Positions 29,601 to 64,000 of a stretch of 64,000 bases of DNA are shown here, one piece after another (positions within the stretch are counted from its first letter, which is position 1; each line of letters opens with the position of its first letter). The notes under the pieces were generated by a model. The model saw nothing but the letters and a program-made list of their open reading frames with translations. It was not told the DNA's origin and ran no database searches. Position numbers and translations under genes: made by a program. The DNA is from a virus. The stretch covers positions 32,001 to 96,000 of IMG/VR virus record IMGVR_UViG_3300046820_002137, one strand, 5' to 3'.

Positions 29601-32211
29601 CATCCGGTCTTGCCCATAATACTTCAGCATTATCTATTTGGTAATATAATATATCATCATCTGTAGGATTTCCGGGGTCATTAATCTCAATTACCGGAGT
29701 TCCTCTTGTTGACCCAGTAATTGCTCTATTATTAAACTGATTATCATTGGTTAGGCCAGTTAAATTTGGGTCTTGTGAATTTGTAGGTTCAATAAAAGAT
29801 ACCATTTGACCTACATTCCAATTTACAGATGGTTTAGCCATCAATATTATCACATTATCTAAGTGCCATTTACTAATACCATTCCCAGGTAAATCAATTG
29901 CAAAAGACGCCTTTATTCTATTATACCCTCCTCCAGGATTAAAAGCGCTTTCATCAAAATACTTAGCTTTGGTATTTAAAATATTAAGTCTTTCCCAGAA
30001 AGGTAAACTTGGAGAGTATATAAATTCAAATCCCGGTTCATCATCAATCTCAAATGGTACAGGATATGGTGCTCTAGATATTTCACTTCCATTATATGGT
30101 CTTCCCGCAATTATTAATCCATATGCGGCATCAGGATTTCCGGCCGGGCAAATTCTCCAATTTGAAGGTTGGAAAAATGGGGTGATGAAGGTTGATGCTC
30201 CTATTTGGTTTGCCGTATTTAATAAGTCAGCTCCTGCCGATGAAACCGAGCCAACACTAGTTTGACTACCACCATCTTGTGCCGGTTCATCACATGAGCA
30301 CATTTCACAATTAGGATAGGTTAACATTGGTAGGTTCATTGACCCATTTCGACATCTATCTTCGAAGTCATCAGCAATACCTTGGAATTTGTCGCACACC
30401 CTAGATAATGTATCACATAATCCACTTAAAAATCCAAATGGGGTTATATTTAAAAAAGAAGTTCCAGCAATAGAACAAATACCATCCGCAATTGCACATA
30501 TAAAACCAGCAATACCTTCCATAACCACCCAAAGAATACACACAATCAAACCAACTATATGTTTTAAAAGTATTACTGCAAATAATATTGGTGTGAAAAT
30601 TCCTAATATAAATGTGAACAATATATATATTATATCGTTTTGGAACATACCGTCGTTTGCGGGAAACTTATTGTGAGTACCCTCACATTCCTCATTCAAA
30701 ATATCTTTAATCGCAATTATTTTATATCTATTCAAACCACCTCTATGTTCGGAAATCATTTGTGACACAGTATAAACTTTACTGTGAATCATTTCATAAA
30801 ATCTGTCTTCACAATTAACCGCCTCATCAACCATAAGTAATCCGGTTGGAGTTAGGTTACCTCCTGAGTCGGTCTCTCCATATTCATTCCAATCCAAACT
30901 AAAAGCATAAGATGCTCTAACCTGTTTATACTGAGGACTAGCCAATAAAGTAGTTGTTGGTGCAATACACCCTACAAAAGCTTCAGTTAAGAAGTTAGCA
31001 TCTTGTATTGATGGGTCTTGGTCATAAGAATCCCAACCCCATTCTTTAATGTTTGGTACCAAAAAAGCGCCTCTAATAACTTCATTAGACAGTGAAGGCG
31101 CTTGTTCCCATTTAACTTTAAACCTATATTTTCCTTTTGTTGGTATACCTACGTTAGGGTCGTTAGAAATTTGTCTATTACCAAATTCATCAGTATAAAC
31201 ATAATCTAAATTCATAGGTACATCTATTAACCATGTCCCATTTTCGTCTACACATTTACCTCCATTTTCTAATTCATAGGTTTCAAGTACAGGTCTTCCG
31301 TCTGAATCTATATTTATAGTTTGTCTTATTGACAATAGTTCCCCAGGACCTGTAATTAAATTACACAAATTTCCAATTTTTTTTCTAGCCTTACAGTTTC
31401 TTTTCACCGCCTCTTTATCAACATTAGAAAATATTGACCCCATAAAAATAGCCGCGGGTTCTATTTTGATACCAAATTCTTGTGATAAATCAAAATCTAT
31501 TCTTGTAATACCTAAATAACATATTTCAGGTTGTCCCCATAATGGAACTACTTCAATAGTTCTATTTGATTGTTTTATTTGTGGTAGTTCTCCTAAATTT
31601 GTAGACGCTCTAAATTCAGTTCCTGATACTTGCTGTTCATTAGCTAAATTAAGTCTTATCATATCCTGTGGTGATAATGAAAATTCACCAATATCCGATA
31701 AGTCAACATCTAAGTGAACTATTTGAGTACCGACAGGTACTCCAAATAACATAAAGTCACCACTATCATTTGTTTTAGTCGTATATTTATAATATTTTTC
31801 AAAAACCTCGGAAACTTCAGGTATAATTAAAACGTCTTCCCTCGATGGAAAAGTACCTGTTGGTATATGACCTCCGTGTGATTTTTCATAAGGAAGTAAA
31901 TTATAACGATATCCGTCATCATTTAAGTCATTGAGGGTCTTATATGGATAAATGTCATTGAGCGTAGGATTATTTTCATCACTATCTGATAATGGTATAA
32001 AGATTGAAACCTTGGCGTTTGGTATTCCAAGTCCATTATTGGCACTTACCCTGCCTACCACAACTCCATAATCAGAACATTGTCTAGTATAAATTTGACT
32101 TTGTAATATTTTTAAAGAAAGAATCTCTAACGACTCAAAATCCTGTTCTAACGCTATGTTTAGTGCTTTGTCAACACCAATTTTAGTCCTTAATCTATAT
32201 GAATTACCCAT
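26662..32211 (-). CDS. Large baseplate-associated protein with an N-terminal carboxypeptidase-regulatory/prealbumin-like domain and an internal hydrophobic segment
   Basis: 1849 aa; YGVVVGRVSANNGLGIPNAKVSIF…TTKTNDSGDFMLFGVPVG; a hydrophobic stretch of about 55 aa at ~30460-30635. Confidence 0.6.
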   Translation of the reverse strand: MGNSYRLRTKIGVDKALNIALEQDFESLEILSLKILQSQIYTRQCSDYGVVVGRVSANNGLGIPNAKVSIFIPLSDSDENNPTLNDIYPYKTLNDLNDDGYRYNLLPYEKSHGGHIPTGTFPSREDVLIIPEVSEVFEKYYKYTTKTNDSGDFMLFGVPVGTQIVHLDVDLSDIGEFSLSPQDMIRLNLANEQQVSGTEFRASTNLGELPQIKQSNRTIEVVPLWGQPEICYLGITRIDFDLSQEFGIKIEPAAIFMGSIFSNVDKEAVKRNCKARKKIGNLCNLITGPGELLSIRQTINIDSDGRPVLETYELENGGKCVDENGTWLIDVPMNLDYVYTDEFGNRQISNDPNVGIPTKGKYRFKVKWEQAPSLSNEVIRGAFLVPNIKEWGWDSYDQDPSIQDANFLTEAFVGCIAPTTTLLASPQYKQVRASYAFSLDWNEYGETDSGGNLTPTGLLMVDEAVNCEDRFYEMIHSKVYTVSQMISEHRGGLNRYKIIAIKDILNEECEGTHNKFPANDGMFQNDIIYILFTFILGIFTPILFAVILLKHIVGLIVCILWVVMEGIAGFICAIADGICSIAGTSFLNITPFGFLSGLCDTLSRVCDKFQGIADDFEDRCRNGSMNLPMLTYPNCEMCSCDEPAQDGGSQTSVGSVSSAGADLLNTANQIGASTFITPFFQPSNWRICPAGNPDAAYGLIIAGRPYNGSEISRAPYPVPFEIDDEPGFEFIYSPSLPFWERLNILNTKAKYFDESAFNPGGGYNRIKASFAIDLPGNGISKWHLDNVIILMAKPSVNWNVGQMVSFIEPTNSQDPNLTGLTNDNQFNNRAITGSTRGTPVIEINDPGNPTDDDILYYQIDNAEVLWARPDGTGNNPTYYNLTARTNNNYAKFQMDVEYFQVIHNTTVGEYMARAQAVGNPFPGTLYNRVMNSDMTTFQYLFRTDVAGVDNSYPFTIPPIPPFDYPPTWVFPFTTYGASGNLGFTCLKDFSLQKLIFLVRGVDPYSTRQRCRFDISRLYGVDTDFNSAWAADPFYIVEDNFKLNIPIQGGFKCVRHLGSNGSADVYTPGEYLFHPSYELSLDPSLFQTFTSSATTTYSRMDSTYYTNTIDGWPPAVETLGPSGTLRIISNNRMTRDFWNSVEPLPISPFYRPYGGSNSYPSIAPDVYTTGDLFSNNGLFYNTTTNGRACKGYFLNEIVEGGSYVYTNDSRLAASYSPFDATTFVFNTPPIYNWSNGFEASPPFSAYYCVPYNNDPAFIEDMIFDNSERIVMRSDRLFMSSTMLYCDGTSTPTGHYIEISYPLMANNLLAVNTVNDNGLVSSASSPPGTGDAGAAADNLTELQNNPALPNNVAESLDCAGLAPLRCYSTDSDGMIILEPDTNNDCYRNVVNLGNISISPPQRDLIVENGCYKLVTAPMLTIPLDFYLVFEWSARIKLNFAACRNVFGHMFTNQWINGTLFMYPVRNQVRFTPPPENSPYICSCNQLVFPDYETNVLYYRSSPYRHPTGFVGKTNAFGFGPFDIEFEDSSGANVKLLQNPTTILDMGPRTKYTSELVLDPRYDGYVMNRLYHTSFKDVSELISQFFLSRLLSRSIAGLILEQFAAILGGGAAGVATDMIQRLFNDRGFKKVDGDYAQMVAINSQIGIKEFDPDEYYGSEPNSIPIVPTSSVFLNSSGARNNVFGIFYKEEVQLRDWISPHRLVVTPTGDLSNPCVYNDIPIFSQRVPIYQWIIKQNSDDDSIFGDQDNDWATDPSPVFFDSYYQEFDRLGASSPDSDFMHPENPTLYTYNKAYIFNVNPAGEIDPEPPLPPGNSNRTFTSSGPYYFYFGISLGKTAYDRFLVKWIKTDVYEF

Positions 32212-47700: not shown

Positions 47701-50700
47701 CTAACTTAGCATTATCTGTGTCACCTTCAAAACATTCATTAAATGTTTGATTAATTAAACTACCATTAGATGGGATTGGATATTCAAAATTTCCGTCTGA
47801 AGTATCTACTGTTACAGACCAAGGAGTTAGACTTAAACTCCTACTAGAATTAGCAGGGTCAAAACCTAAATTACCATTTATTATTGCGTCACTTACAACA
47901 TTTAAATTTACCCCTGAATCAATCCCACTTTGGATATCGGAACTAGTATATCCATTAAAAACTTCAGAACCTTGATAGAAAACATTAAAGTCGTTAATTA
48001 ATTTAGGATAAAAACCTGTGTTAATTACAGTTTGGGTTGGTCCTCCTATTGTGAAATTAACATCCTGTTCTAGTACTATTTCCACACTTTCACCGTTAAC
48101 AGTTAAATTATATGCGGTTGTTGGGTCTGAATTTACTGGGTCATAGTTTTCAATATATTCAAAATTATTCCAAACACCGTCCATAATATCTACGTTGTTT
48201 TGAATATCGTTTTTGTATCTATACCATATCGAACCTATTTTTAAAACCCAAGCATACGGAACTTTATGAATCGCACTGAACTTTTTTAACGTGGCCAATA
48301 TATAATCTAAATCATTAGTTGTATTATTAGACTGACTTGAATTATAAGTTTTATATTTTTCTCTTAGGGTACATAATGGTAGACTGTTAATAAACAAGTA
48401 AGCCGCAGTAACAAATGGAGAGTCTTCCCCATTAGTTTGTTTTAATACACCCTCTTGAATCGCGTTTATAAACATAGGAGTATTCAACATAGAATTAACT
48501 TGGTCTGCCGATACCCCAGCATCGTAATTTTTATATCTAATATTACCTTCAGTTAAAAACTGAGTTTGGTAGGTTCTATTATTAAAAAATTCAATTAAGT
48601 CAGTTTCTTTGTTTACGTTTGGTACCTGAGCGTTTTCATAAATGAAATTTGTTATAGGTCTTTTTGTTAATGTAGTATCAGTGTTGTTAAAATTAGAAAT
48701 AATTTTATTACTCCTGTTATATGTTATTATCTTAGTAGTATTAAACGCAGCCTTAGCGTCAGAAACCGCAGCACCATTAGCCAAAGAGTTCTTAACCCAA
48801 TCTGTATTAGTTATCGGATATGTGTCTAATAAATCAAATTCATTTGTCTCAGAATTACCAGTTATAAAATTTTCGAATTCTGTTTCATTTTCCAATGAAA
48901 CCAATGGATTTGATTTTGTTGCCGCCACTGTACGTACATCCAAAAATTGGAACCCACCGCTTTCAGTTTGATTCTTGATATATTCAGTGTTGAATATACC
49001 CCTTATAAAGTTTTGCCAACTTTTACCCATACCTGAATTTGATATGTGTTTAAGTGTTGGTACAAAATTTTCAGAATTTAACCCGTAGTTTTTCAATTTT
49101 TCAATCAAAAATCCACTATCAGTTCCTAATCCGTTAACCATATTTATTTTTTCGGCATCCGATATAGTACTAGCCACAGAATCTCTACTTTGTGTAGATG
49201 AAGCGGCTCTAGAAAGTCTAGAATAATTTGAGGTATAAAATAATCTTTCATATATTTCATAGAAAAATTTAACCTCATCTTTATTTGAAAAAATTTCGTT
49301 GGTTACAGGAAATTCCATTCCATTCATTGAAACTCTTTTGACATCAGTTTCCTCGTTAAAATTAGGTTGCCCGTTTTTAGTATCTCCCGCTCTTTCAGTA
49401 TACCCTCTTAAAAACTCTTCTAAAAATTCAACTTCAGGCCATACATCATATTGATTCCCTTTTGTTTGACTAACATAATCAGGGTCTCCAGGGTATGCTA
49501 TTACATACTTTTCCTCTCCATTTTCTCCATTAGTTTCAACAATAAATTGAGGCCATGGATATATCGGTAAAGTTTCGTTATTACCTGATGATATATTATC
49601 GGCACAAGCACTTGAAGTTGATGAGTTTAAAATACAATTTTTTCTTACTTTATCATCTCTCTTGTCCCAAGCTCTAGTATGAACATCATCCATCATTCTT
49701 AAAAATGCCTCTGAATTTGCAAAAATAACCGCCATAATATTCCTAGCAGTTGGTACGAATCCAAGTCCTGTACTTTTACTTTGTAACTTTTCTGCAAGAG
49801 CCTTTGTTATGTCATCTTGAATTTTTTCTCGATAAGCAATTAAATCTTTACTCATTCTATTAGTCTCACTTAAAAAAGTCTGAGTTAGAACTTTAGTTTC
49901 CTTATTAATATTAGTGTTGTTTAAATTACCAAATTTATAATATGTGTATTTAGGGACGGGTTCTCCATCTTTAAGAGTTATATTTCCCGCATTAAAATTC
50001 ATATTTTCAGATAATTCTTTACCCAACGCATTTAAATCTTCAGTAGTTGGTTCTTGATTACCCTTTCTCTGTTTAAATGTTTCTGTTAAGTTAATTTCAC
50101 TAGGATTAGTTAATTCTTGGTAAAATAATTCAATTTTTATATTATTTGGTATACTACTTCGTTGTTTTTTACCGTTTATTTCATAAAACCCGTTTTCTCC
50201 TACTGTTTTATTACTATTTAATATTGTGTTATATTCGGTAATAAGTTTTTTTAGATTTGTAAGAGCCTCTTCTTTCTTTTTCTCATCCGAAAATTCTTTT
50301 TTGAATGAATACAATTTCATGTCGTCTGAGACCGAAACAAAATAATTTTGTTTGTCCATGTATGTTTCAAACCAAGATTCATTTAAAATGTAAAAAACTT
50401 TGTTTTGATACTCTTTTAACTTTTTTTCATAAAATTCCAAGTCATTAAGTGGGGCCATATTTTGTTGTATGAAAGACTCCAAATAATTTTTTATAAAAAA
50501 TTCCAATCTATAATACATTTGCATTATAGTAATCTCTGGAAAATCATCAGGTATTAAACCTTTATTTTTGTACTCACTATATAGTTCTTTAATTTTTTGT
50601 GTTCCCTTTTGAACCGGTAAATCGTTAACTGTTGTAGATTGTGACGGACCTCCTTCATTACCCTTAACAGGTAAGTTATTACTATACATGTGAGGAGTTG

Positions 50701-51760: not shown

Positions 51761-54700
51761 TTAGAAATTAAACTTAGCGTTATCTAAATAAGTAGTGTTA
51801 GGTCCATGATTTTGACCGTCATATAGTTTTTTAATATCCTCTGATTGTGTTGCATTATCTACACCCGGAACCGTTGTATAATTGAACTTTCTTGTTTTAC
51901 CTTTTGGGTACATTTTCTCATCTAAATCATCAACAAAATCTTTATAGTCATTACTGTCTTTGAAGTCGGTGTAAAGTTCTTCTTCGTATTCAAGTTCTTT
52001 AGTATACTCCTTGGCCAAATCATCAACAATACCATCAAATTTATTTTTCAAATTGGTTGGGTCACTAACACTTACAAGGTCTCCTTTTATAATTGAATTT
52101 TTAAAACTTTCTCTTTTATTACTGTCTTGTAAAACTCTTGAAATAATTAAGAAGAAATGTTTTTCGGGACTATCCACACTGTTTCCTCCGATAAAGTTAT
52201 CATACACTGGTATAAAATTACCAACTTCATCATAAGGTTCTTCAGTTATCTTATTATCAGTTAATAGTGTTTGATAATCAATCAAAGTATTTGACGCTCT
52301 ATTTAAATCATCCCAAAGTTCATCATCCGTGGAGCTAATTGAAGGGTTTACAGTTGTGGTTGTTGTACTAACTTCACTAGTTCCATTAATAGTATATACT
52401 ATCGGTAGATTCTTATCTCCAATTTTACCGTCAGTTAGGGTGGCAACAAGATTTAATTTTCTTATAATCCTACTATAATCCTGTTGGAAAGTTACCATTT
52501 CTTGTGATGTTGTATATAAAACATTTGAAAAATTGTTATATAGGTCACTAACATAAGATATCATATTTTCGGTAATAGTATCCATTACATTTGACTGCCA
52601 ACTAAATTTATCCAATTCTTTCATGATTGGATTCGTTCTATCTGTTATTTCACTCTTAACTAAATCAAAAATATCCTTTGTAAACGAGTCGATATTTGAT
52701 GGTGCCCCATATATTGGAGCATCGACTTGACTAGTTGTACTGATATTTAATCCACCTTCGTTATATAATCTGTCTTTGTTCATGAATTGAACAATTCCGT
52801 GATTAGTATTCAACATTACTTTTTCTAACAGATTAGGAATCGTTTCCATATATGTTTTAGTACTTCCCTGAAGTTCGTCCATAACTTTTTGGTAACTTAT
52901 GTCACCAGTTTGTCCACTTTCTACCGGATTTGTACTTAATATTTCTCCGATGGTATTACCACCATCATTTGTTGGTTGATTATCAACATTATTGACTGTT
53001 GAATTTTCTTCTCCTAATTCAAGAGCGTCAATAAATTTCTTATCCAAAGCTTTCCAAGAATCATCGGTCCATGTTGACCTTTCATCATATATTTCAGTGT
53101 TAGCGTAATAGTTAAATGATAGTGCGTTTTGTAACTGTTCAACCGGTTTTGCAAGTCCATGACCACCAATCATATCAAAACTTAATGATATTTTGGCAAT
53201 CATAGGTTGTACACCAATACCCTCAGGGTTCATATCAAAAAGTGGTGACTCATAAGTTATACCTAATTCTCTTGGGATTATTTTACAGTTATAGAAATCA
53301 CCGATTCTAAGTATCAAAACCGGAGGTGCTCCAAATGATGTATTAACAGCATCATTTGATTTAGGTTTACCATCAGAACCTATCACAGGTATAGTTTCAC
53401 CAGGTCTAACACATTGATTTAAGAAAGTTAATCTAGCATTTAAACCTTCAGGTGTCATAGAATGGAACGCCGGGTTGAAGTACTTAATCTTTTCTTTTAT
53501 TGAATCGTAAACCATTGGGGCGTTTTCTTTTATAACCTCGAAATAATCACACTCAGTTAATAAATTTCTAACTATCTGTTTACTAATACCTTCTTTGAGT
53601 TTTTTTTCAATTGTTACATTATCTTTTGGTTGTGGTTTTTGTGGTACAATTCCTTGTTCTGAGGTGGAACTACTTGGTGGGTTAAAAAGAACACCCGGAT
53701 TTTCTTCTAAATTATCGGGTATAGTTCCAGCGTCAGATGGTTTATCGTTTATAACTATGGTACTTATTCTAAGTCTTCTACATGCCATAACACTAACAGA
53801 ATAAATCTGAGAACCGTTGTTTGTTGCCCCATTTTTATCCTCAACAGGTGTCGTACAATTTACGGTATCTTGCATAACCCCTCCTTGTGCTATAGGGTTA
53901 GTAAAAGATTCTCCTGACCCTCCACCAAAACTTATTTTTAAGCTTCCATTATCAATATACTTACCTAAACTAACACCACCTGATGTAAAGTTTCTAAAGT
54001 ACTCAACAATAGAATCACTTCTTTTTTGGTTTATTGTCTCATTAAAATTAGAACTAACTGTAAAAGATTCACCACCCTCTAAAACTATTGATATTGTTTT
54101 TTTCTCGGTAGTTAGAATACTAAACGCATCTTGAACCATTGAGTTTCCTCCGTCATTAATTAAAGAAAAATTATCTTTAATAACTTGGTCAAAAAATTCA
54201 TTAACATTTCTATTAAAATCATCCTCATTAAACAATTGTTCGGCGTTAGATACATATTCAGAAGACTTACTAATATATTGATTATATAAAACATCATAAG
54301 AATCTACCGTTCCGTTAACCGATGGTGAATTATCATCAAAATAGAATGATAAATTTTCATATTTGTTTACAAAATCATCAACACTTGGTTCATTAGTTAC
54401 AATAGAACTAGTTGAACTATCCGCATAGTTTCCACTAGTATTAGTTTGCGAGTCTTTTCCAATTGAATTAATAATATTTGTGACATCTTCTTGACTACTT
54501 TGTGGGTTGTTTAAAATTTCTTGATAGGTATATAAGTCTTTGGTAGGTAAGGTATTAAATTTTTGAGCTAATGTGTAGATATCATACTTCACACATCCTG
54601 CGAAAAATGAATCAATTATAGAGTCAACTCTTTCTTTAGCAACTCCTTTTAATTGTTTATCAACAATTAAATTCATTACCGAAGGACTATCAACTATTAT

Positions 54701-56806
54701 TTTCCAACTAATTGTTCCCTTTCTACTACTCTCTTTATATGTGAAAACAGGTTCAGGTCTTCCTAAAAAACTAGTAGGATTCCAATTCGCAGAACTACTA
54801 TCGCTAAATGTTAAATCATATGGCGGAAACCACATTACTCTACCACCATTGGGTCCTTTTTCACAAGTAGGTAATTCATCATAGGTGTATCCAGGTCTAC
54901 TTGAGGTCCTCCATGCTAAATTTTCAATAGAGAACATATATTTTTTAGCGTATCCACCTTTTCCGTTGTCATCATCTTTAATAATATTTGTAGAACCAGG
55001 ATTTTTAGTTGGTGAAATATTCAAATTATATGTGTTATCAAGTACAGAATATGAAAATCTTCTACCTGATTTAGTTATACCATCAGTTTTTTGTAAATCA
55101 TTATAAGCATAATATGGAGTATCCTTAGCAAAGACTCTACAGTATTCAATTCCGGCCTCAGCACCTGTTGCGTTATCAACATAAGATAATACTTGAGAAC
55201 CTTTTGTTATTTCTTTGTAACCGTCATTGAATACTTTACTAACTTGATTTATTGCATTACCTACGTGTTTTAGACGACTAATTCCTTCTACCAAATCTCC
55301 TGAATCAATTAATCTTTGAGTTTGGTCTAATATTGAATTATCTCTAAAGTTTACATTTGTTGAAGAATTTTTAGTGAAATTTGAACTAACTAAATTAAAA
55401 TCTTCGTCAATTTGTCCCGCACCTCCTCCTGGTGTTGGTTTGTACCCGGCATTCTTTTTATATTTAGGAGATGTCCAAACAAATTGACCGTCAATACCTC
55501 CACCATCAGATAGGGATTTTGCTGCGAGTCCAAAATTTAATACATCTTGATTACCTTCATACAATATACCCAATTCTGATGGACCATAAACAGGTGATGC
55601 AACTTGTTGTCCATATGGGTTAATCGGTAATTGGTTTGGTGGAGAATTTATCTGAGATGGCTCAGCGGTTCTACCACCAACATAATATCCACCAACCAGT
55701 GTTCCATTATTTGGGTCTATTATACCTGATACAATATTAATCAGTCCTTGGACAAGGTTACCTAATAATCCTCTATCATATGCAGGACGATACCTGTTAT
55801 AATCAATGTTATTAAATAATGCAGACCTTTGACCATTACCTGTATTTGCTAGAAAAATTTCAGATGGGTTTCTGGTTAGATTAAGTATAGGCCCTAAAAA
55901 CCCTCCAGTTACGTTATTTAAAACATTTAACGCAATTGATGTTTGTTGAGTTTGTAATCCAAGAAACGTATTTTCATTAAAGTAATCACCCGGAATAGGT
56001 GATACAGGCCAATAAGCACCTGCCAGTCTTGTAGCAAAATCAACCGCCGCCAGTATAGGACTTTCAGGTACCGTAATTCTCCAATTTCTATAAACTAAAG
56101 GTTGTTGTCCTGTTATTAATAAACTAGCTTCAAATGGGTCTTGTAGACTCGCTAAGTTTACCGCACCAACAGTATTTTGATAAATCTCAAGATTAATTCT
56201 TTCGATGAATAAATTTTTTAGATATTCCGCACCTAATCTAGCTATAAATGAATCTTGTGATAACGGACCCACAGAACCTTGGGGATTAGATGAAAACAGG
56301 ATTTCATATGGAGAATAAAACGAAGGTACGAACGTAGGTGGGTCCCAATATGGACCAAAATACTTATTTAAATTAGGTAAGTCTTCAGTTGAATATAAAA
56401 GAATGTATTTGTTATCAGGTATATAGGAGTTTAAATTCGCCGGTGAATACTTTTCTTCATTTAGGTAAAATGTACTGTTTGCGGCTAAAACACTTTCGGT
56501 TAAGGGATAATAAGGTTCTCCGCTAGGTTTAACAGGTACTAACGCTCCGTTATAATTTATTGATAAATTATAACCTCCAGATGGTCCGTATTCGTTTAAA
56601 GGGTATAATGTATTTGGATATGGTGACTGCCCAATCAAATTGTCCGGTGAGTTAATGACCGAACTATCTGTCAATTGAGTTTCATAAGCAACATTAGATA
56701 CTGGCGGAACGTATGAACCAACAACGGTGTACGGTGATAAATTTCTAGCTAAAAGTGAGTCTCTAAAAGATTGACTAGACGCAAAGGATAAAATACTATC
56801 TGCCAT
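51761..56806 (-). CDS. Tail tube initiator-like protein (gp48/gp54/CIS-tube fold) with an inserted OmpA-like domain
   Basis: FSDSSSANWNPTSFLGRPEPVFTY-x-x-S-x-R-x-x-TISW and APPVLILRIGDFY…MIAKISLSF; located between the tape-measure and LysM genes. Confidence 0.65.
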   Translation of the reverse strand: MADSILSFASSQSFRDSLLARNLSPYTVVGSYVPPVSNVAYETQLTDSSVINSPDNLIGQSPYPNTLYPLNEYGPSGGYNLSINYNGALVPVKPSGEPYYPLTESVLAANSTFYLNEEKYSPANLNSYIPDNKYILLYSTEDLPNLNKYFGPYWDPPTFVPSFYSPYEILFSSNPQGSVGPLSQDSFIARLGAEYLKNLFIERINLEIYQNTVGAVNLASLQDPFEASLLITGQQPLVYRNWRITVPESPILAAVDFATRLAGAYWPVSPIPGDYFNENTFLGLQTQQTSIALNVLNNVTGGFLGPILNLTRNPSEIFLANTGNGQRSALFNNIDYNRYRPAYDRGLLGNLVQGLINIVSGIIDPNNGTLVGGYYVGGRTAEPSQINSPPNQLPINPYGQQVASPVYGPSELGILYEGNQDVLNFGLAAKSLSDGGGIDGQFVWTSPKYKKNAGYKPTPGGGAGQIDEDFNLVSSNFTKNSSTNVNFRDNSILDQTQRLIDSGDLVEGISRLKHVGNAINQVSKVFNDGYKEITKGSQVLSYVDNATGAEAGIEYCRVFAKDTPYYAYNDLQKTDGITKSGRRFSYSVLDNTYNLNISPTKNPGSTNIIKDDDNGKGGYAKKYMFSIENLAWRTSSRPGYTYDELPTCEKGPNGGRVMWFPPYDLTFSDSSSANWNPTSFLGRPEPVFTYKESSRKGTISWKIIVDSPSVMNLIVDKQLKGVAKERVDSIIDSFFAGCVKYDIYTLAQKFNTLPTKDLYTYQEILNNPQSSQEDVTNIINSIGKDSQTNTSGNYADSSTSSIVTNEPSVDDFVNKYENLSFYFDDNSPSVNGTVDSYDVLYNQYISKSSEYVSNAEQLFNEDDFNRNVNEFFDQVIKDNFSLINDGGNSMVQDAFSILTTEKKTISIVLEGGESFTVSSNFNETINQKRSDSIVEYFRNFTSGGVSLGKYIDNGSLKISFGGGSGESFTNPIAQGGVMQDTVNCTTPVEDKNGATNNGSQIYSVSVMACRRLRISTIVINDKPSDAGTIPDNLEENPGVLFNPPSSSTSEQGIVPQKPQPKDNVTIEKKLKEGISKQIVRNLLTECDYFEVIKENAPMVYDSIKEKIKYFNPAFHSMTPEGLNARLTFLNQCVRPGETIPVIGSDGKPKSNDAVNTSFGAPPVLILRIGDFYNCKIIPRELGITYESPLFDMNPEGIGVQPMIAKISLSFDMIGGHGLAKPVEQLQNALSFNYYANTEIYDERSTWTDDSWKALDKKFIDALELGEENSTVNNVDNQPTNDGGNTIGEILSTNPVESGQTGDISYQKVMDELQGSTKTYMETIPNLLEKVMLNTNHGIVQFMNKDRLYNEGGLNISTTSQVDAPIYGAPSNIDSFTKDIFDLVKSEITDRTNPIMKELDKFSWQSNVMDTITENMISYVSDLYNNFSNVLYTTSQEMVTFQQDYSRIIRKLNLVATLTDGKIGDKNLPIVYTINGTSEVSTTTTTVNPSISSTDDELWDDLNRASNTLIDYQTLLTDNKITEEPYDEVGNFIPVYDNFIGGNSVDSPEKHFFLIISRVLQDSNKRESFKNSIIKGDLVSVSDPTNLKNKFDGIVDDLAKEYTKELEYEEELYTDFKDSNDYKDFVDDLDEKMYPKGKTRKFNYTTVPGVDNATQSEDIKKLYDGQNHGPNTTYLDNAKFNF

Positions 56807-56845: not shown

Positions 56846-58654
56846 TTACTCTTTCTTCTTAAAGTCTTTACCCATTTCTTCAAATATTTTATATATTCTT
56901 TCTTTAATTTCTTGAATATTAAGAGCATCCATAACTTGTTGAGTGGACATACTAGAAGGAGCGGTTACATTAATGTTAATATCCATTTTAGACTCTTCAG
57001 AAGTTTTAACTTCGGTGGTCTTTGACTTTTCTGTTCCTGGGGTAACTTCACCTGTTTCAACTGGTTGTACAGTTTGTGCTTGGGATTTAAAATCAATTCC
57101 TGTTACATCTTTTAGTTGGGTTTTTAGTGTCTCAGGCATTTCAGTACCATATGTACTAAACAATTGTGCAAATCCTTCAGCATTTTGATTAATAATTCCA
57201 CTTTGTTCATTAGCCGTTTTAGTAATTAACTCCAATAATTTATCACCTTCCTCCGTGAAATCAAAATTACCAGCCATCATTTTTTCAAACATTGATTTTA
57301 GTTCCCCACTTGAGCTATCTATCAATTCTCTAACAGCTCCTGTACCTAAAGCCCCTCCTTCTGTTATAACATTGGTCCCTTCTCTTGTAATTTTTGTAGC
57401 ACCTTTAATCATATCATCAACAAGTTTAGTACTTGCAATACCTCTGGCGGCTCTACCTTCCAATTTTTTTAGACTAGACGCCATACTTTTTTGTAAATCT
57501 AATTGTTCAGCAGCTAAATCCTCCATAGCCTTTGGTTTTGACGATTCTATTAACTTATCAAGTTGTTCTTTATTGTTAGTGTCCGCTAAAACATCCGCTA
57601 ACTTTTGTTCTTTACCATCTACCGTAATAACATACTCACCATCTTTCATTTCCGCTAAATTAGCAACCATTTTTTGTTGCTCTTCAGACATAAAATCAGG
57701 AAATTTAATTTTCCTCATTTTATCTTCTAACTCCGCAGAACCCATTGCCATTTTTGTTAGTTCGTCATAAGCAATACCTGTTGCTTTAGAAATCTCTCTG
57801 AGTTGTAATTTACCTTGTGGCGCAATTTCAAACTGACCTTTCTCATTTAATTGAACAAATTGTTCTGTCATTTGTACAAGTTGATTCTGTAATTCAGTAG
57901 GGTCATTAAGTGAAAGGTCCATCAATCTTAACGGGTCTAATAAGTCAGATTGTGTAACTCCTAATCGTTGTAATGCTGACGACATCTCTATCGCTTTTTC
58001 AGGATTATATAGATTATCTGCAAAACTCAAAGTAGTCTTCATGTCAATCCTCATACTTGATGCTTGAGCTGCCATCTTAGCTAAACCATCAACACCACCC
58101 GCAAAATTATACTTATTCATGGAATCCATGTTAGCAACCGCTTGTTCACTAACCGCCTTGACACTTAATCCTTGTTGTCGAGCCACGTCAACAATTTTTT
58201 GCATACCTTCAGCAACACCATATGCAGAAACACCAACATTTTTAAATGCCGGTAATAATTCTTTAGCTTCTTTACCAGTTACAGTAGCTGCCGCATAAAT
58301 ATCTTTGTAAACATCTCCACCTAAAATAACATTTCGTCTAAGGTCAGCAGCAGCCGCTAATTGAATTTTTGTAACATCCTCATAAGAACCACCTAAACCC
58401 AAGACCTCGGCTGAGGCATCTGCCATTGCTGCTTTTATTTGTTGAATATTCTCTCTACCTTGTCCAAAAAGATTGGTTACTTTTGTTGCTTCAACGTCTA
58501 GTCTTTGTATTTCTTTAATTACCGTAGGAAAACTAACGTCAATCATGCTGTTGAAGGACTCCTCGATTTTTTTCCCGAATGATTTAAAATAAACATCCGC
58601 AGCCTCTACGGAGGCTTTTGATATATCATCTGTTGATGGAGTTCCGTCTTGCAT
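56846..58654 (-). CDS. Tape-measure-like protein
   Basis: 602 aa, Ala/Gln/Met/Lys-rich and helical with no Cys or Trp; canonical position after tube and chaperone genes. Confidence 0.65.
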   Translation of the reverse strand: MQDGTPSTDDISKASVEAADVYFKSFGKKIEESFNSMIDVSFPTVIKEIQRLDVEATKVTNLFGQGRENIQQIKAAMADASAEVLGLGGSYEDVTKIQLAAAADLRRNVILGGDVYKDIYAAATVTGKEAKELLPAFKNVGVSAYGVAEGMQKIVDVARQQGLSVKAVSEQAVANMDSMNKYNFAGGVDGLAKMAAQASSMRIDMKTTLSFADNLYNPEKAIEMSSALQRLGVTQSDLLDPLRLMDLSLNDPTELQNQLVQMTEQFVQLNEKGQFEIAPQGKLQLREISKATGIAYDELTKMAMGSAELEDKMRKIKFPDFMSEEQQKMVANLAEMKDGEYVITVDGKEQKLADVLADTNNKEQLDKLIESSKPKAMEDLAAEQLDLQKSMASSLKKLEGRAARGIASTKLVDDMIKGATKITREGTNVITEGGALGTGAVRELIDSSSGELKSMFEKMMAGNFDFTEEGDKLLELITKTANEQSGIINQNAEGFAQLFSTYGTEMPETLKTQLKDVTGIDFKSQAQTVQPVETGEVTPGTEKSKTTEVKTSEESKMDININVTAPSSMSTQQVMDALNIQEIKERIYKIFEEMGKDFKKKE

Positions 58655-58684: not shown

Positions 58685-58813
58685 TTAAGAATTTTGACTA
58701 TTACCTTCATTTAATTTACCAATAATATACTTTCTTAAGTAAGTGGGCATCAATAAAAAGTCAGAATAAGACGTATTTAAATTTTTTGCGAGTACTATAT
58801 ACTCGTTCGCCAT
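58685..58813 (-). CDS. Small ORF missed by the track (MANEYIVLAKNLNTSYSDFLLMPTYLRKYIIGKLNEGNSQNS); probable 'T' part of the tail assembly chaperone
   Basis: 42 aa between chaperone and tape measure. The pattern S-x-x-D-x-x-x-MP-x-x-x-R is typical of gpT-like segments. The frame stays open upstream across the chaperone stop. Confidence 0.7.
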   Translation of the reverse strand: MANEYIVLAKNLNTSYSDFLLMPTYLRKYIIGKLNEGNSQNS

Positions 58814-58826
58814 ATATTCTCTGTGG

Positions 58827-59582
58827 TTAGAAGAAAGGCCGAAAAAATTCAACCCCAAAAACGATATCGACTTTCGTTTCTTCTCCTGATGGGGCTATTA
58901 CTCTTTTTGTTAAATCTAATGATGGAACGTTGTCCTTTAAAAAATTTCTAATGAATTTGGAATCCGCAATTGGAAGTTGTTCTACAAATATTGCAATTTT
59001 TCCTTTATCGGTATCACCATCTAATTCAACTATTTGTTTTTGTAGCTTAATAGTAACTTTAGGAGCAACTCTTCCTTGTGGATAATTTTCAATGATTCTA
59101 TCAATTTCCTGTAGTTCACCAAAATTTATAGGTTTCAATTTAACTTTAGCACCTGTCTTTGGAAGTTCCACTGAAAATGTTCCGTCTTCATTTGGTCTAC
59201 TTTGTCCTTGTTTTACATTTAATTCGTCTAAAACAAGTGTTTTCTCAAATAATTTACCGGTTTTAGGGTCTTCAAGTCTTACGACATACTCAGGTCCAAA
59301 CGCCGTATTTCTTAAAAACAATAATATAGCTTGGATATCTTCGTCTAACAATTCCTCAGGTCTTAAATCATGTTCATAAATTTTATTTCTTAAAAGAGAC
59401 ATTACAACACTATCCTTATTACTTAATCCTGATAATAAAAAGTTTTCATCTGTAGCAGTCAGATAACCTACTTTTATTGATTTTTTCTTAGATTTGTAAA
59501 AAATTCCACCTGTTGGTAGTATGACCACATCATGTGGTAGAGTAAAATTTTCAGTTGCCGCGTTTAAAAGTGAAGAATCCAT
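58827..59582 (-). CDS. Tail assembly chaperone / T4 gp26-like baseplate hub assembly protein
   Basis: LPTGGIFY, LTATDE, LL-x-x-D-x-x-AILLFLRNTAFG, LPKTG…KP and C-terminal EFFRP; lies between tube and tape measure. Confidence 0.75.
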   Translation of the reverse strand: MDSSLLNAATENFTLPHDVVILPTGGIFYKSKKKSIKVGYLTATDENFLLSGLSNKDSVVMSLLRNKIYEHDLRPEELLDEDIQAILLFLRNTAFGPEYVVRLEDPKTGKLFEKTLVLDELNVKQGQSRPNEDGTFSVELPKTGAKVKLKPINFGELQEIDRIIENYPQGRVAPKVTIKLQKQIVELDGDTDKGKIAIFVEQLPIADSKFIRNFLKDNVPSLDLTKRVIAPSGEETKVDIVFGVEFFRPFF

Positions 59583-59583
59583 T

Positions 59584-59721
59584 TTATTCTTTTTTTAAAT
59601 TTTCATTAGTTTGATTTTGGGAATCTTTTTTTGTATTTTTCTTATGTCGGTTAAGGAACTCCTCTTCCGTTTCAAAAACTTTCCCACAAGTATTACAAGT
59701 AAATCCAGTTTGAGTTTCCAT
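59584..59721 (-). CDS. Small ORF missed by the track with a C2H2-like Zn knuckle (METQTGFTCNTCGKVFETEEEFLNRHKK…, 45 aa)
   Basis: ATG 59721 to TAA 59584, ending 1 nt before the chaperone ATG; F-x-C-x2-C-GK-x-F…H pattern. Confidence 0.65.
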   Translation of the reverse strand: METQTGFTCNTCGKVFETEEEFLNRHKKNTKKDSQNQTNENLKKE

Positions 59722-59727
59722 AATAAC

Positions 59728-59757
59728 AAAAAATCCCATATTAATAATATGGGATTT
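59728..59757 (-). terminator. Intrinsic terminator downstream of the tail tube gene
   Basis: aaatcccatatt-aat-aatatgggattt with a U-tract on the - strand. Confidence 0.7.
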
Positions 59758-59780: not shown

Positions 59781-60269
59781 TTAGTAAACTAAAATACAAC
59801 GGTCCATTCTTAAAGTAGCCTGTATAGTCGCAACTTTATCATCAGTATAACTTAATGAATCAAAGTTAACATCCGATAAAAATGTCCCCTCAAGAATCCA
59901 TTTTTCAACAACTACACCTGTAGGGTCTAACATCTCAAGGTCAACATTCTTTTTATAACCCGCCGCATAACCCATACGACCTGTTACTGATTCCGCACAT
60001 AAACGAACCCATTCCATTAAAGCTTGTGATGCAGAAGGCCCTATTGGGTCTCTAAAGGTTACGTTGATTGTACCCCACGTAAATCTTCCCGCAACATATG
60101 TTTCAGTGTTTAAGAAAGGAATGGCCACTGGAGTAATTGTAATTTTGGGTCTTGAAGTACCCTCAACAAACCATTCATTTATACCTAATGTAGAAGGAAA
60201 ACGCATAATAAATCGGTTTTTCCTTTTTGGTTCATAAGGTATGGGCATTTTCATTAGTAAATCAGCCAT
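59781..60269 (-). CDS. Tail tube protein (T4 gp19-like)
   Basis: EPKRKNRF, RPKIT, YVAGRFTW-x-x-I-x-VTF-x-D, LMEW, YKK, VVEKW-x-L-x-G and L-x-Y…TLRMD. Confidence 0.9.
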   Translation of the reverse strand: MADLLMKMPIPYEPKRKNRFIMRFPSTLGINEWFVEGTSRPKITITPVAIPFLNTETYVAGRFTWGTINVTFRDPIGPSASQALMEWVRLCAESVTGRMGYAAGYKKNVDLEMLDPTGVVVEKWILEGTFLSDVNFDSLSYTDDKVATIQATLRMDRCILVY

Positions 60270-60385: not shown

Positions 60386-61204
60386 TTAATAAGGTTTCTT
60401 TACTCCTCCTGCGGTTGAAATTGTTTTAATTATGTTGTCTGGTTTGTTTTCAAAATGACTCTTAACTTTTTCTAAATTTCTTAAATCATCATCTGAAAAT
60501 CCTATTGTTGGTATAAAATTATTTGAAACTATGTTCTTGAAATACGCTTTTTTCTGAATGTGTTTTGAAATTCTTTTAACATATCCCACAAAATCATTTA
60601 AAGCTTTAATTTTACCTTCTTCGGGACTAGCAGCACTTCCTTTTCCATAAGTTACAGGATAGAATCTACACATATTAAGATACTCCCTAATCATGTCTTT
60701 TTTAGATGACTCACCTAAACCTTCGATTTCTCTATACTTTTCTAAATTTTTAATCAATTCATTAGAATCAATACCCATATGATTTGAAATTATCATATTG
60801 TAAACAGATTCTTTCATAACACTTGGAGTGTGCCCTCTAGCCGTGACTATTGAAAATATCGACCCATTATTAATGGCTTCGACAAAATCACCCCAAGCAG
60901 GTCCTGGTTTTCCAAGTAAAGAATCAATTATAAATTGTTTATCACCCTCTACACCAAAATACCTAAACGGGTTTTCTGCAAAACCAACAATTTCATGTCC
61001 ATCATAATCAAACGGTTCTTTTCCAATTTTCATACGATATTCGGCAAAATCTTCTGTAGACATTCCAACCTCATCACCATCATTATCCTTAAGTATTATT
61101 TTGGTTGGCATAACTAATATGTTATCATCCCAATCAAACGCATAATACTTCATATCAGGAGTTCCTGAATCTGTCACACCTTCGTTAATCTTTTTAAATT
61201 TCAT
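60386..61204 (-). CDS. HAD-superfamily phosphatase-like protein
   Basis: Motif I AFDWDDN, motif II IVTARG, a conserved Lys (EEGK) and motif IV FSDDD-x-x-N. Confidence 0.75.
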   Translation of the reverse strand: MKFKKINEGVTDSGTPDMKYYAFDWDDNILVMPTKIILKDNDGDEVGMSTEDFAEYRMKIGKEPFDYDGHEIVGFAENPFRYFGVEGDKQFIIDSLLGKPGPAWGDFVEAINNGSIFSIVTARGHTPSVMKESVYNMIISNHMGIDSNELIKNLEKYREIEGLGESSKKDMIREYLNMCRFYPVTYGKGSAASPEEGKIKALNDFVGYVKRISKHIQKKAYFKNIVSNNFIPTIGFSDDDLRNLEKVKSHFENKPDNIIKTISTAGGVKKPY

Positions 61205-61261: not shown

Positions 61262-64000
61262 TTAGATATTTTCAAACGAAGCTCCTGTTGGAGTTATATA
61301 GAATGTGATATCTATAAATTCAAGAGCCTTTGTTGGTTTAATATAAATTTTACCAGTCATTTGATTTCTATCTAAGTCAGCCACATCTGAAGAAACTGTT
61401 ACACGGAAATCGTATAAACCTCTATCTCTTCTGATAGCGTCTAAGATTGGGTTAACGGCATCCAAGAAGTCTTGTCTAACTTTTTGGTCGTTTTGTTCAA
61501 ACAACAATCTTACAGAAACCGCCGAAATCAACTTACGAGCTTGTAACAACAATCTTCTAACGTTAATTCTGTCAAGAGCTGACTGTCTAATTTGTAAAGT
61601 TTTATTACCCCAAATTACAGTTCCTACATCAGAGAAGGTTGCAATTGGGTTAATTCTACCTTGATAAAGAGTGTCTCTATCTTCTTGAGTCAGTTTCTTA
61701 CGAGCCTTAATTGCATTTACAATACCACGAGTATAACCAGCAGCTGCGAACCAAGGGAACGCGATGTTATCGGTTAATGCTAAGTTTCTTGTTACCTCAG
61801 CTGTAGGTGGAATGTAAATTTGAGTGTTGTTTACACTATCACGAGTTAATACCCATGGGTAGTAAGTACATGTATAGTTAGAATCAATACCTGTGGTATC
61901 CAAGTTATCAACCGCCTCTTGTGGATAGATTAAATCTTGGGAATCACCAAGTTGTGGAACAAACATATTATAGTCAGGAGTAGTTGTTATATACAATGAA
62001 TCCGCTCTGTCATATTCCACCATTTCTATGGCTGATTCAACAAGATTTGAATGGTTAACATAATCAATACCTGGAGTAACAAATACGTTAATGTTAACAG
62101 ACTCAGGATTAGAGAATGTCTTCTGTCCTAATAAATAAGCATAATAGTCGGTGTTAGCCCAGTCAACTGAATTATCACCTACAGTTATTTGCTTAAATGC
62201 GCCCCATCCTGTTGCGTTTGGATATCTAATATCCGCACAAGCACCTTTTAAATAACCACTTCTACCTAAAATAAATCTGTCACTATTTGTTCTATACTCT
62301 CTATAGATGTCCCATCCGTCGAAACCTCCTTGACATAAGAAAGTAAATTTACGAGCATAAATTCTATAGTACGGATTCGTCTCTTCATCAGGGTCAGATG
62401 TAAATGGAGCGGCTCCAACATCAAATGCCGCGCTTCCTGAGGTTGTGTATGAATTAGGTATTGTAATTCCAGATGCGTTTATATCCATATGGAATCCCTT
62501 AGTTTGATAATCCCAATCTGAAGCCGTTGTAGAGTTACAAACTGAAAATACCGGTAATTGTTTACCCTTATATTGATAAAAATCTAAATCAATACCTATT
62601 GTATCTGAAATACCCAAGTAAGTTCTACGTACATTATCACCAGGACTTGCTACTGAATCATTTCCACCTGTAGCCAAACCAAATGGTGGGTCATAAATTA
62701 TTTCACCTGGGTAATCGTATTTAGTCTTATATACAGGGAACGGAGGATTAATAGAATCACCATAACTTCTCATTGTATATCCTACGAAACCACAAGGTAA
62801 AGAATCTATTGGAGCATCTTCATTAATTTCAATCATTATGTATTTAGAATTTAATGCGTATTCACCGTCTTTAGTTCCTATTTTTTTAGCAATAAATGAA
62901 TTATCACTTGGGTCCATACTACAATTAGTAAATTTCTCTAAAACTACCGGATTAGCATCTGAATCAAAGAAATCTCTAACTAATACATCAAAAGTTCCGT
63001 TATTAAATGAAATGTTCACAATAGAAATTTTAACTTCGGTGTTTGCCGCATTACCATCAGAAATTGTGGTAAACTTAAATAAGTTATACACTTTGTTACC
63101 CCTCAATTCAGAAACAACCCATGGAGATGCGGGTGATTGATACTGGTCTAAATACCAAGCAATTGATGATGGGTCGCTATCTTGTCTTGCATTTGGTAAA
63201 GCAATTAAATCACAATTTAAACCTCTAATATAACCTTTTCTATATGCGTAGTTTAAAAGAGATTGATATCTTTCCTCTACGAATAAAGGTACTAATGTCC
63301 TTGGTTTTGCGAAATTACTAGAACCAAAAACCTTACTTATATATTTAGGGTCCGAATTTGTTAATGAAGTTTCAAAGAAGAAATTTTCTCCATCTTTATT
63401 AGTCACATTTAATCCAAAAGTTGCATATGGATTTTTACTCACACCTGAATAAGGTCCTGTACAATCCATAGATACATCTGTTAATCCTGAAACTTCATAA
63501 ACAGGTCCATCGTCAGATGAATAAGTTGCCAAACCTCTAGAACGAAGAGTTGCGATAACTAAATTATCATACAATACATAAGATTGACCAGACCAAGTAA
63601 AAATAGCACCGCCAACAGAACCACTATAACATGTTAAAACCGAACCAACGTTACCTGAACCTGTTGTTCCTGTTGGACTTAAAGGAGTACAAGGGTCTTG
63701 TATTGTTACTGACACAGTCCAGTTTGTTGTTACTGAAGAATCATTTGAAACTAACACATATGTTAATGAGCCGGCATCAAAGTTATTTGTTGTTACATTA
63801 CTTTCTTGAGGATTACTATCTACAGTTATAGTAGTAGTACAAGAACTAAATATACTAGTTACTTGAGTTAGGTCGGCACCCGCAAATGACGCGTAGGGTA
63901 ATACAACTGTAATTGTATTTGTGTTATAATTTATACTTCCTGAAATACCTGAAACTGAATAATTATAAAATGTTGCACAATTGTTTGATGTTGATGTTTG
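61262..64000 (-). CDS. Contractile tail sheath protein (T4 gp18-like), 5' end outside the window
   Basis: GGFDG, YYPW, IPP, PWFAAAG-x-x-RG, LYQGRINPI, VIWGNKTLQ, SALDRINVRRLL and IKPTKALEFI. The frame is open from base 64000 (913 codons), so the track's GTG start at 63757 is internal. Confidence 0.93.
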   Translation of the reverse strand, partial: QTSTSNNCATFYNYSVSGISGSINYNTNTITVVLPYASFAGADLTQVTSIFSSCTTTITVDSNPQESNVTTNNFDAGSLTYVLVSNDSSVTTNWTVSVTIQDPCTPLSPTGTTGSGNVGSVLTCYSGSVGGAIFTWSGQSYVLYDNLVIATLRSRGLATYSSDDGPVYEVSGLTDVSMDCTGPYSGVSKNPYATFGLNVTNKDGENFFFETSLTNSDPKYISKVFGSSNFAKPRTLVPLFVEERYQSLLNYAYRKGYIRGLNCDLIALPNARQDSDPSSIAWYLDQYQSPASPWVVSELRGNKVYNLFKFTTISDGNAANTEVKISIVNISFNNGTFDVLVRDFFDSDANPVVLEKFTNCSMDPSDNSFIAKKIGTKDGEYALNSKYIMIEINEDAPIDSLPCGFVGYTMRSYGDSINPPFPVYKTKYDYPGEIIYDPPFGLATGGNDSVASPGDNVRRTYLGISDTIGIDLDFYQYKGKQLPVFSVCNSTTASDWDYQTKGFHMDINASGITIPNSYTTSGSAAFDVGAAPFTSDPDEETNPYYRIYARKFTFLCQGGFDGWDIYREYRTNSDRFILGRSGYLKGACADIRYPNATGWGAFKQITVGDNSVDWANTDYYAYLLGQKTFSNPESVNINVFVTPGIDYVNHSNLVESAIEMVEYDRADSLYITTTPDYNMFVPQLGDSQDLIYPQEAVDNLDTTGIDSNYTCTYYPWVLTRDSVNNTQIYIPPTAEVTRNLALTDNIAFPWFAAAGYTRGIVNAIKARKKLTQEDRDTLYQGRINPIATFSDVGTVIWGNKTLQIRQSALDRINVRRLLLQARKLISAVSVRLLFEQNDQKVRQDFLDAVNPILDAIRRDRGLYDFRVTVSSDVADLDRNQMTGKIYIKPTKALEFIDITFYITPTGASFENI

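Follow-up and report, generated by a model that had tools for sequence, protein, structure and literature searches.

A tail assembly chaperone gene of the T4 gp26/gp51 family, carried by a viral contig from IMG/VR (record IMGVR_UViG_3300046820_002137), quite probably undergoes a programmed +1 ribosomal frameshift near its 3' end. The stretch of DNA that was analyzed (the window) comprises 64,000 nucleotides, positions 32001 to 96000 of a full contig of 120.6 kb; coordinates below are those of the window, and features lie on the minus strand unless stated otherwise. The 0-frame gene (58827 to 59582) encodes a protein of 251 residues, the short form (G), and is overlapped by a small open reading frame (ORF) in the +1 frame (58685 to 58858). 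The protein matches PF12322 ("T4_baseplate") over residues 30 to 245 with 28.8 bits, compared with a gathering cut-off of 24.5, and phrog_150 ("baseplate hub") at 4.9e-10, so that the gp26-like chaperone named in the initial annotation is right as a family assignment. The occurrence, direction and efficiency of the shift, the role of the codon CGG in it, and the function of the products in tail assembly are what we infer from sequence comparison.

The 0-frame gene ends in GAA TTT TTT CGG CCT TTC TTC TAA, exactly as the initial annotation had quoted it. GAA (58850 to 58848) is followed by a run of six U in the mRNA (58847 to 58842), the codon CGG (58841 to 58839), CCT TTC TTC (58838 to 58830) and the stop codon TAA (58829 to 58827). 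The +1 frame was said to be open across this point and into the small ORF; indeed, it is open from 58858 to its own stop at 58687 to 58685, 51 codons past the shift point, and encodes the peptide FFGLSSNHREYMANEY...MPTYLRKY...NS. When TTTC, which occurs in frame only once in the chaperone gene, at the shift site, is read as a single step, the product has 298 residues, in agreement with the size predicted earlier for a G-T fusion; its residues 248 to 298, the "T" extension, are encoded by the +1-frame codons at 58840 to 58688. The codon CGG, which had been expected to be rare, is used once in the 30 long ORFs of the window (20,067 codons), at the shift site itself, and CGG (4 occurrences) and CGC (3 occurrences) are the rarest sense codons among the 37,086 of the contig. 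The layout of a P-site UUU, a following C and a rare CGN in the A site, as in influenza PA-X, is therefore present in the window. By itself, the motif occurs at chance level: the bare nonamer TTTTTTCGS has 2 matches in the window against 1.5 expected, and the second of them, TTTTTTCGG at 49147 to 49155 on the plus strand, opposite most genes, is compatible with chance. An open +1 frame of 57 codons at 33% guanine plus cytosine (GC) would arise by chance in about 1% of cases, according to our own estimate from base composition. Thus, the significance of the site derives from its context and its conservation.

Under the mechanism proposed here, most ribosomes would read the 0 frame to the UAA at 58829 to 58827 and produce the 251-residue short form. 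A minority would shift while codon 247, UUU (58844 to 58842), occupies the P site and CGG, a very rare codon, the A site: peptidyl-tRNA-Phe would move one base forward onto UUC (58843 to 58841), GGC would be read next, and 51 further codons up to the UAA at 58687 to 58685 would complete a 298-residue long form (G-T) with a helical C-terminal extension. With the rare CGG or CGC in the A site, ribosomes would pause for longer, much as in influenza PA-X. If the analogy with lambda G/GT and T4 gp26/gp51 holds, both forms together would guide tail assembly around the tape-measure protein encoded directly downstream.

Other types of recoding signal were considered for this site and rejected. A +1 site of the prfB (RF2) type does not fit, given that the A site holds a sense codon rather than a stop codon and that GGGGU lies 7 to 8 nucleotides upstream, not 3. 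A stimulator resembling a Shine-Dalgarno (SD) sequence was rejected for this host because an SD-like 4-mer precedes only 4 of the 83 genes of the contig, whose starts are ATG codons after A/T-rich leaders. A -1 shift on an X_XXY_YYZ heptamer was rejected as well: the -1 frame closes after 11 to 17 codons in the listed loci, and the extension lies in the +1 frame.

The 251-residue protein has 4263 homologues, and its close relatives were examined as the best 80 of 458 found in a scan of viral contigs (62 to 85% protein identity). All 80 loci contain TTTGGGGTNGARTTTTTTCG[G/C]CCTTTYTTY followed by a stop codon, and all 80 have a +1 extension of 53 to 54 codons, one of these loci ending at the contig edge. 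The +1 peptide is conserved as FF[G/A]LS..., ...[M/I]PTY.RK[Y/F].... Selection on this peptide was measured in 33 unique sequences over +1-frame codons 7 to 31, downstream of the 0-frame stop and upstream of the first conserved Met. Here, the ratio of nonsynonymous to synonymous variation (pN/pS) is 0.37 for the +1 frame compared with 1.0 and 1.26 for the other two; over codons 31 to 50, it is 0.25. These ratios indicate that the +1 peptide is under purifying selection. Synonymous variation of the chaperone gene itself is lowest in the last nine-codon windows (0.151 compared with 0.366 overall). Among 45 unique coding sequences, TTT TTT and CCT are invariant, and Arg in the A site is encoded by CGG in 35 sequences and by CGC in 10. 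Conservation at the nucleotide level extends, in 80/80 loci, over a 33-nucleotide block, TTTGGGGTNGARTTTTTTCGSCCTTTYTTYTRR (58827 to 58859), which includes the 0-frame TAA. In four DNA sequencing runs, many metagenome contigs that are otherwise divergent or unalignable match this block only, and the T6 run shows no insertion or deletion in the contigs of these runs. A further observation within the block concerns TTT GGG (58854 to 58859), three to four codons upstream of the site, where synonymous positions are invariant in 45/45 unique coding sequences even though GGG is one of the minor codons for Gly and the +1 frame should go unread at this point. A word-based search with fusion residues 240 to 298 among proteins of 163 to 522 residues identified no in-frame fusions in close relatives.

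The +1 layout, together with the gene order, was also found in four sequenced phages. The site is AAC TTT TTT TGG CCT in Microcystis phage Mel-JY01, GAA TTT TTT CAC in Bacillus phage SP-15, GAG TTC TTT CGT CCC in Bacillus phage HSE3 and AAC TTT CTA in a 484-kb uncultured phage, and in all four the overlapping ORFs are annotated as two genes or left unannotated. For example, SP15_046 (locus L082, 4647 to 4874) and HSE3_gp075 (locus L187, 3180 to 3401) are "hypothetical" genes in the +1 frame of a "baseplate hub subunit" gene, and in both phages this frame is open from the TTT site. The annotated gp046 of SP-15, of 39 residues, starts at an ATG inside the conserved domain, and the annotation is therefore probably too short, cutting off part of the protein.

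SP-15, Mel-JY01 and the uncultured phage served as seeds for a distant viral set of 102 loci, 98 of them analyzable and 82 unique. In 80 of the 82 unique sequences, a +1 extension comes after an in-frame TTT whose next base is T or C: the site is TTT TTT TGG CCT in 62, TTC TTT TGG CCT in 11, CTT TTT TGG CCT in 3, TTT TTT TAC CCT in 2, TTT TTT CAC in 1 and a T8 run in 1. In a metagenome set, the best 80 of 227 relatives, 75 loci have a +1 extension, 3 have the extension in frame and 1 has it in the +2 frame; in 1 locus, it was not found. Of 72 unique metagenome sequences, the 68 with a +1 extension all carry a TTT_Y site, namely TTT TTT TAC CCT (35), TTT TTT TGG with CCT or CCA (25), TTC TTT TGG CCT (7) or TTT TTT TAT CCT (1). 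The viral and metagenome collections may share records; their unique counts must therefore not simply be added, and the joint figure of 148 of 154 may include some records twice. All clades share an in-frame UUU with U or C as the next base, which allows the P-site tRNA-Phe to re-pair one base downstream. Both the site and the frame relationship, whose conservation the initial annotation had named as the check on its reading, are thus kept in the close and in the distant sets, and the ATG at 58813, the start from which the small ORF would otherwise be translated, is found in the window only and is absent from the other close-set sequences.

Natural long forms of the protein were identified with a profile of the extension, which was searched against 1.84 billion proteins and returned 1474 matches at E<=0.001 and 390 at E<=1e-10. 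Five of the best 150 matches are proteins of 308 to 331 residues, and in 5/5 of these the extension forms the C-terminus, with PF12322 in front of it. The predicted 298-residue fusion aligns with one of them (P0252) across the junction without a gap (E 3e-27), although P0252 comes from a single 1.8-kb contig in which a homopolymer error is possible; the junctions of the other four are diverged. A context search in viral contigs returned two distant matches for the protein P0197 and none for P0252.

The direction of the shift was inspected in the light of these sites. The initial annotation had left room for a -2 shift and preferred +1. In a ribosomal -2 shift, the P-site tRNA-Phe would slip back two bases within U6 and one extra Phe would be inserted at the junction. 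U6 permits perfect re-pairing at -2, and TTT is used for the first Phe in 45/45 unique coding sequences when TTC, a common synonym, would also serve; both points favor such a shift. Shifts of -2 reportedly operate in the chaperones of phage Mu. In relatives with TTC TTT TGG or TTC TTT CGT, however, a shift of -2 would place the tRNA on UCU, where it could not re-pair, and the natural in-frame homologue P0252, known from a single contig, aligns without a gap with the +1 product at the junction. The preference for +1 is borne out by 18 unique relatives with TTC TTT TGG (11 viral and 7 metagenomic) and by the TTC TTT CGT of HSE3, and a -2 shift is accordingly considered very unlikely.

The same short runs bear on slippage of RNA polymerase on the T6 run (A6 in the template), by which some mRNAs would contain one U fewer or two more and the fusion would be encoded in frame. 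In favor of slippage, the protein made would be exactly that of a +1 shift, T6 does not vary within the clade, and T7 is what other clades most often have. Six T is short for efficient slippage by bacterial polymerases, and the frame layout is the same at TTC TTT TGG, with a run of 4 T, in the 18 unique sequences and in HSE3, with 3 T. Polymerase slippage thus appears very unlikely. With sites of 3 to 4 T being unfit for -2 re-pairing and poor for polymerase slippage, a +1 ribosomal shift is the only one of these routes that fits every clade.

Several observations nevertheless weigh against a +1 ribosomal shift, or limit what can be said of it, and some of them bear on whether the small ORF is a separate gene, translated from the TTG at 58858 to 58856 or the ATG at 58813 to 58811 into a free protein of 42 to 57 residues without any frameshifting. 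The TTG, which precedes the site by four codons in the +1 frame, is kept in 33/35 unique clade sequences, for which initiation at this codon is possible; its position inside the conserved TTTGGGG accounts for its being kept. Gene callers list 145 of the best 150 matches to the extension profile as small proteins of 55 to 134 residues. Furthermore, the slippery site is lost at two loci, L176 (TTC TTG TAT) and L182 (TTC CTT TGG), where a gene of its own, in the +2 frame and starting at an ATG, encodes the T-like protein, which is longer at its N-terminus by about 20 residues; to judge from these two loci, the T-like protein is viable when free-standing. Conversely, the other 2 of the 35 unique sequences (seven loci, L009 to L015) carry a TAG after the TTG but ahead of the site, directly before AAT TTT TTC, and contain no ATG, GTG or TTG after this TAG before codon 30. 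An upstream start in the +1 frame (ATG, GTG or TTG) is also absent from 35 of the 80 unique +1 sequences of the distant viral set and from 38 of the 68 of the metagenome set. The ATG is not conserved, the closest relatives listed having Leu there, and the context of the TTG is not A-rich, unlike the leaders of the contig's genes. Finally, the frame is +1 in all but a few loci, and where the site is lost, an ATG is gained or the extension is fused in frame. On balance, a separate gene is considered quite unlikely.

The remaining reservations concern the details of the proposed +1 shift. The A-site codon in other clades is UGG, UAC, CAC or CGU, and the rare Arg codon is specific to the clade of the window. 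Even there, the +1 frame needs TTY followed by GGC or GCC, which limits the 0-frame codon to TGG, CGG, TGC or CGC; CGG and CGC are thus dictated by the Phe-Gly/Ala codons of the +1 frame, and their rarity may be partly a by-product. The PA-X-like site proposed in the initial annotation holds for the UUU CGG of the window, with its rare CGG, but not for the family as a whole. No covarying RNA stimulator was detected with RNAalifold among 33 unique sequences (-5.8 kcal/mol). The fold of the single sequence around the site has a z score of -1.24, and a predicted local hairpin pairs GGGG with CCUU across the U6 run, without covariation, all of its pairs being invariant. There is no RNA run among the 24 sequencing runs listed with the sequence. 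At sites with T6 or T7, a -2 shift or polymerase slippage would give a nearly identical product. The single-contig origin of P0252 and the possible overlap between collections belong among these reservations as well.

Lineages with other solutions place the +1 site in a broader evolutionary context. Three metagenome records (L191, L192 and L193) encode the extension in frame; their junctions have diverged and lack a T run. In two of these, L191 and L192, a short PF12322 gene (289 to 290 residues) lies directly upstream of the long one, the two being paralogues (BLASTP E 7e-30). These tandem pairs are located at 2890 to 4678 of L191 and 95 to 1904 of L192, and in L192 a gene for 1033 residues follows. 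Such natural long forms next to short paralogues lend indirect support to the idea that tail assembly would need both a short and a long form. In L196, a single contig, the sequence AGT TTT TTC TGG precedes an extension in the -1 frame in a U_UUU_UUC layout, which could be a change of shift direction or a single-contig error. Taken together, we lean slightly towards the view that a stimulator-free +1 shift at UUU_Y is the ancestral and still dominant route to the long form among gp26/gp51-family chaperones, the T4 two-gene arrangement, the free small protein and perhaps the -1 site being later replacements. If this is true, the UUU_Y shift would be common to phages of Bacillus, cyanobacteria, and freshwater and marine bacteria, would make up one of the largest natural groups of +1 shifts in viruses that infect bacteria, and would explain why T4 appears to be an exception to the chaperone frameshift rule.

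Structural comparisons of the extension were made with a natural in-frame homologue, P0195. The model of this long form (predicted local distance difference test score, 83.6; predicted template modeling score, 0.79) predicts an extension of three helices, the last one long. It has no fold neighbor in the PDB at E<=0.001 and 59 matches in BFVD at the same threshold, named gp26 or "baseplate hub." The extension by itself gave no significant sequence match in the PDB (best E, 0.2) and no PHROG family, and the alignment of the short form gave no sequence match in the PDB. A predicted complex of the extension with the tail tube protein scored 0.00, a value that weighs neither way on binding, and binding of the extension to the tube protein would be only an analogy. 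Paired Cys motifs are present in the chaperones of some relatives, as CPRC and CDWC in the 484-kb phage (L083) and with spacings of their own in T4 gp26 and SP-15. The sequences suggest that these pairs form a zinc ribbon. The pairs are lost in the clade of the window, as seen in an alignment of L082, L083 and L084 with the window.

The surrounding genes conform to a tail module. The GC content is 33.5% in the window and 32.4% in the full contig, and nearly all genes of the window lie on the minus strand. From ORFs, Pfam and PHROG matches, the order is sheath, tube, PF12322 gene, overlapping +1 ORF and a tape-measure-like gene; the same order is found in Mel-JY01, SP-15 and HSE3. The tail sheath gene (61262 to 63757, its frame open to the window end) matches PF17482 and PF04984, both above cut-off, and is followed by an ORF of 272 residues without a Pfam family (60386 to 61204). 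The tail tube gene (59781 to 60269) matches phrog_4542 (3.8e-27) and, below cut-off, PF06841 (24.8 bits). Between the tube and chaperone genes lies an ORF of 51 residues (59584 to 59739) with weak C2H2 zinc-finger matches, all below the Pfam cut-offs. Downstream of the small ORF, a gene for 602 residues (56846 to 58654) without a Pfam or PHROG match occupies the tape-measure position, is called by that position alone and has a counterpart in HSE3 that is annotated as tape measure. It is followed by a gene for 1681 residues (51761 to 56806) with no Pfam family and one weak PHROG match of unknown function. The contig contains no tRNA gene. The A/T-rich leaders, the scarcity of SD-like 4-mers and the low GC content suggest that the host may use initiation that is not SD-led, for example, as a member of the Bacteroidota.

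Programmed frameshifting in tail assembly chaperone genes is a textbook case, almost always in the -1 direction, and a passage in PMC5009743 describes G-T frameshifting as conserved in long-tailed phages "except T4." What appears to be new here is the direction of the shift and the protein family, within the known phenomenon of chaperone frameshifting, with Vladimirov et al. 2022 as a caveat. In the literature searched, which did not extend to Vladimirov et al. 2022, no published +1 shift in a gp26-family gene was found. According to PMC10885494, that study describes T4-like phages as having, in place of frameshifting, one short gene and one longer, fused gene, and according to PMC12846349, it reports poly-T slippery sequences in TAC-N genes of T4-like phages; some of the present results may therefore already be published. 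The findings would bring the T4 gp26/gp51 family inside the chaperone frameshift rule, with the other direction of shift, and would add up to three or four interchangeable ways to a short and a long form, namely a +1 shift, duplication with in-frame fusion, a small protein made on its own and, possibly, a -1 site. They also provide a rule for annotating genes now split into "baseplate hub subunit" and "hypothetical protein," as in SP-15, HSE3 and Mel-JY01, and a natural series of UUU_Y sites with varied A-site codons in which the causes of bacterial +1 slippage can be studied, including, judging from this contig, some hosts without SD use.

Comparison with T4 shows both the kinship and the difference. 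Table 2 of Leiman et al. 2010 (PMC3004832) lists gp26 and gp51 as hub assembly chaperones, and Vladimirov et al. 2022 reportedly treats their genes as the T4-like tail assembly chaperone genes. They have the PF12322 family and a conserved C-terminal Phe-Phe motif in common with the chaperone described here. T4 gp51 matches PF12322 over residues 1 to 201 of 249 (177.5 bits, 3.9e-52) and continues for about 48 further residues; gp26 is its short paralogue (BLASTP 2e-6), in keeping with the two-gene description given in PMC10885494. T4 gene 26 ends in ...EFFELL and is directly followed by gene 25, with no overlapping extension. The two T4 genes are transcribed divergently and do not overlap, in contrast to the overlapping frames found here; the two-gene layout of L191 and L192 is alike, but in tandem. 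Homology of the extension to the C-terminal tail of gp51 was not detected by hhalign (probability, 0.1%).

Parallels to the site itself come from other systems. In influenza PA-X and the amalgaviruses (Firth et al. 2012, as related in PMC5009743), UUU_CGN allows re-pairing from UUU to UUC with a rare CGN in the A site, as here, and PA-X likewise is described with no obvious RNA stimulator and a short +1 C-terminal extension produced by a low-level shift. The differences are the eukaryotic ribosome and the preceding codon, UCC instead of UUU, and the relatives described here often have UGG or UAC, so that CGN does not define the site. The terms "tail assembly chaperone" and "PA-X" occurred together, in the literature search, only in the review of Atkins et al. 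2016. For the chaperone of the haloarchaeal myovirus HSTV-2, PMC5009743 speaks of "very likely +1 frameshifting," the direction proposed here, in a virus with an archaeal host.

The closest functional parallel is presumably lambda G/GT (Levin 1993; Xu, Hendrix & Duda 2004, as summarized in PMC5009743). In both cases, two overlapping ORFs lie between the tube and tape-measure genes, a short and a C-terminally extended product are expected, and the layout outlasts sequence divergence. Lambda, according to that summary, uses a -1 shift at X_XXY_YYZ; here, a +1 shift at UUU_Y is proposed, PF12322 is not the lambda G family, and the extension has about 51 residues. By analogy, to judge from where the gene lies, from its family and from the parallels in two-gene lineages, the short and the long form may correspond to lambda G and GT and to T4 gp26 and gp51.

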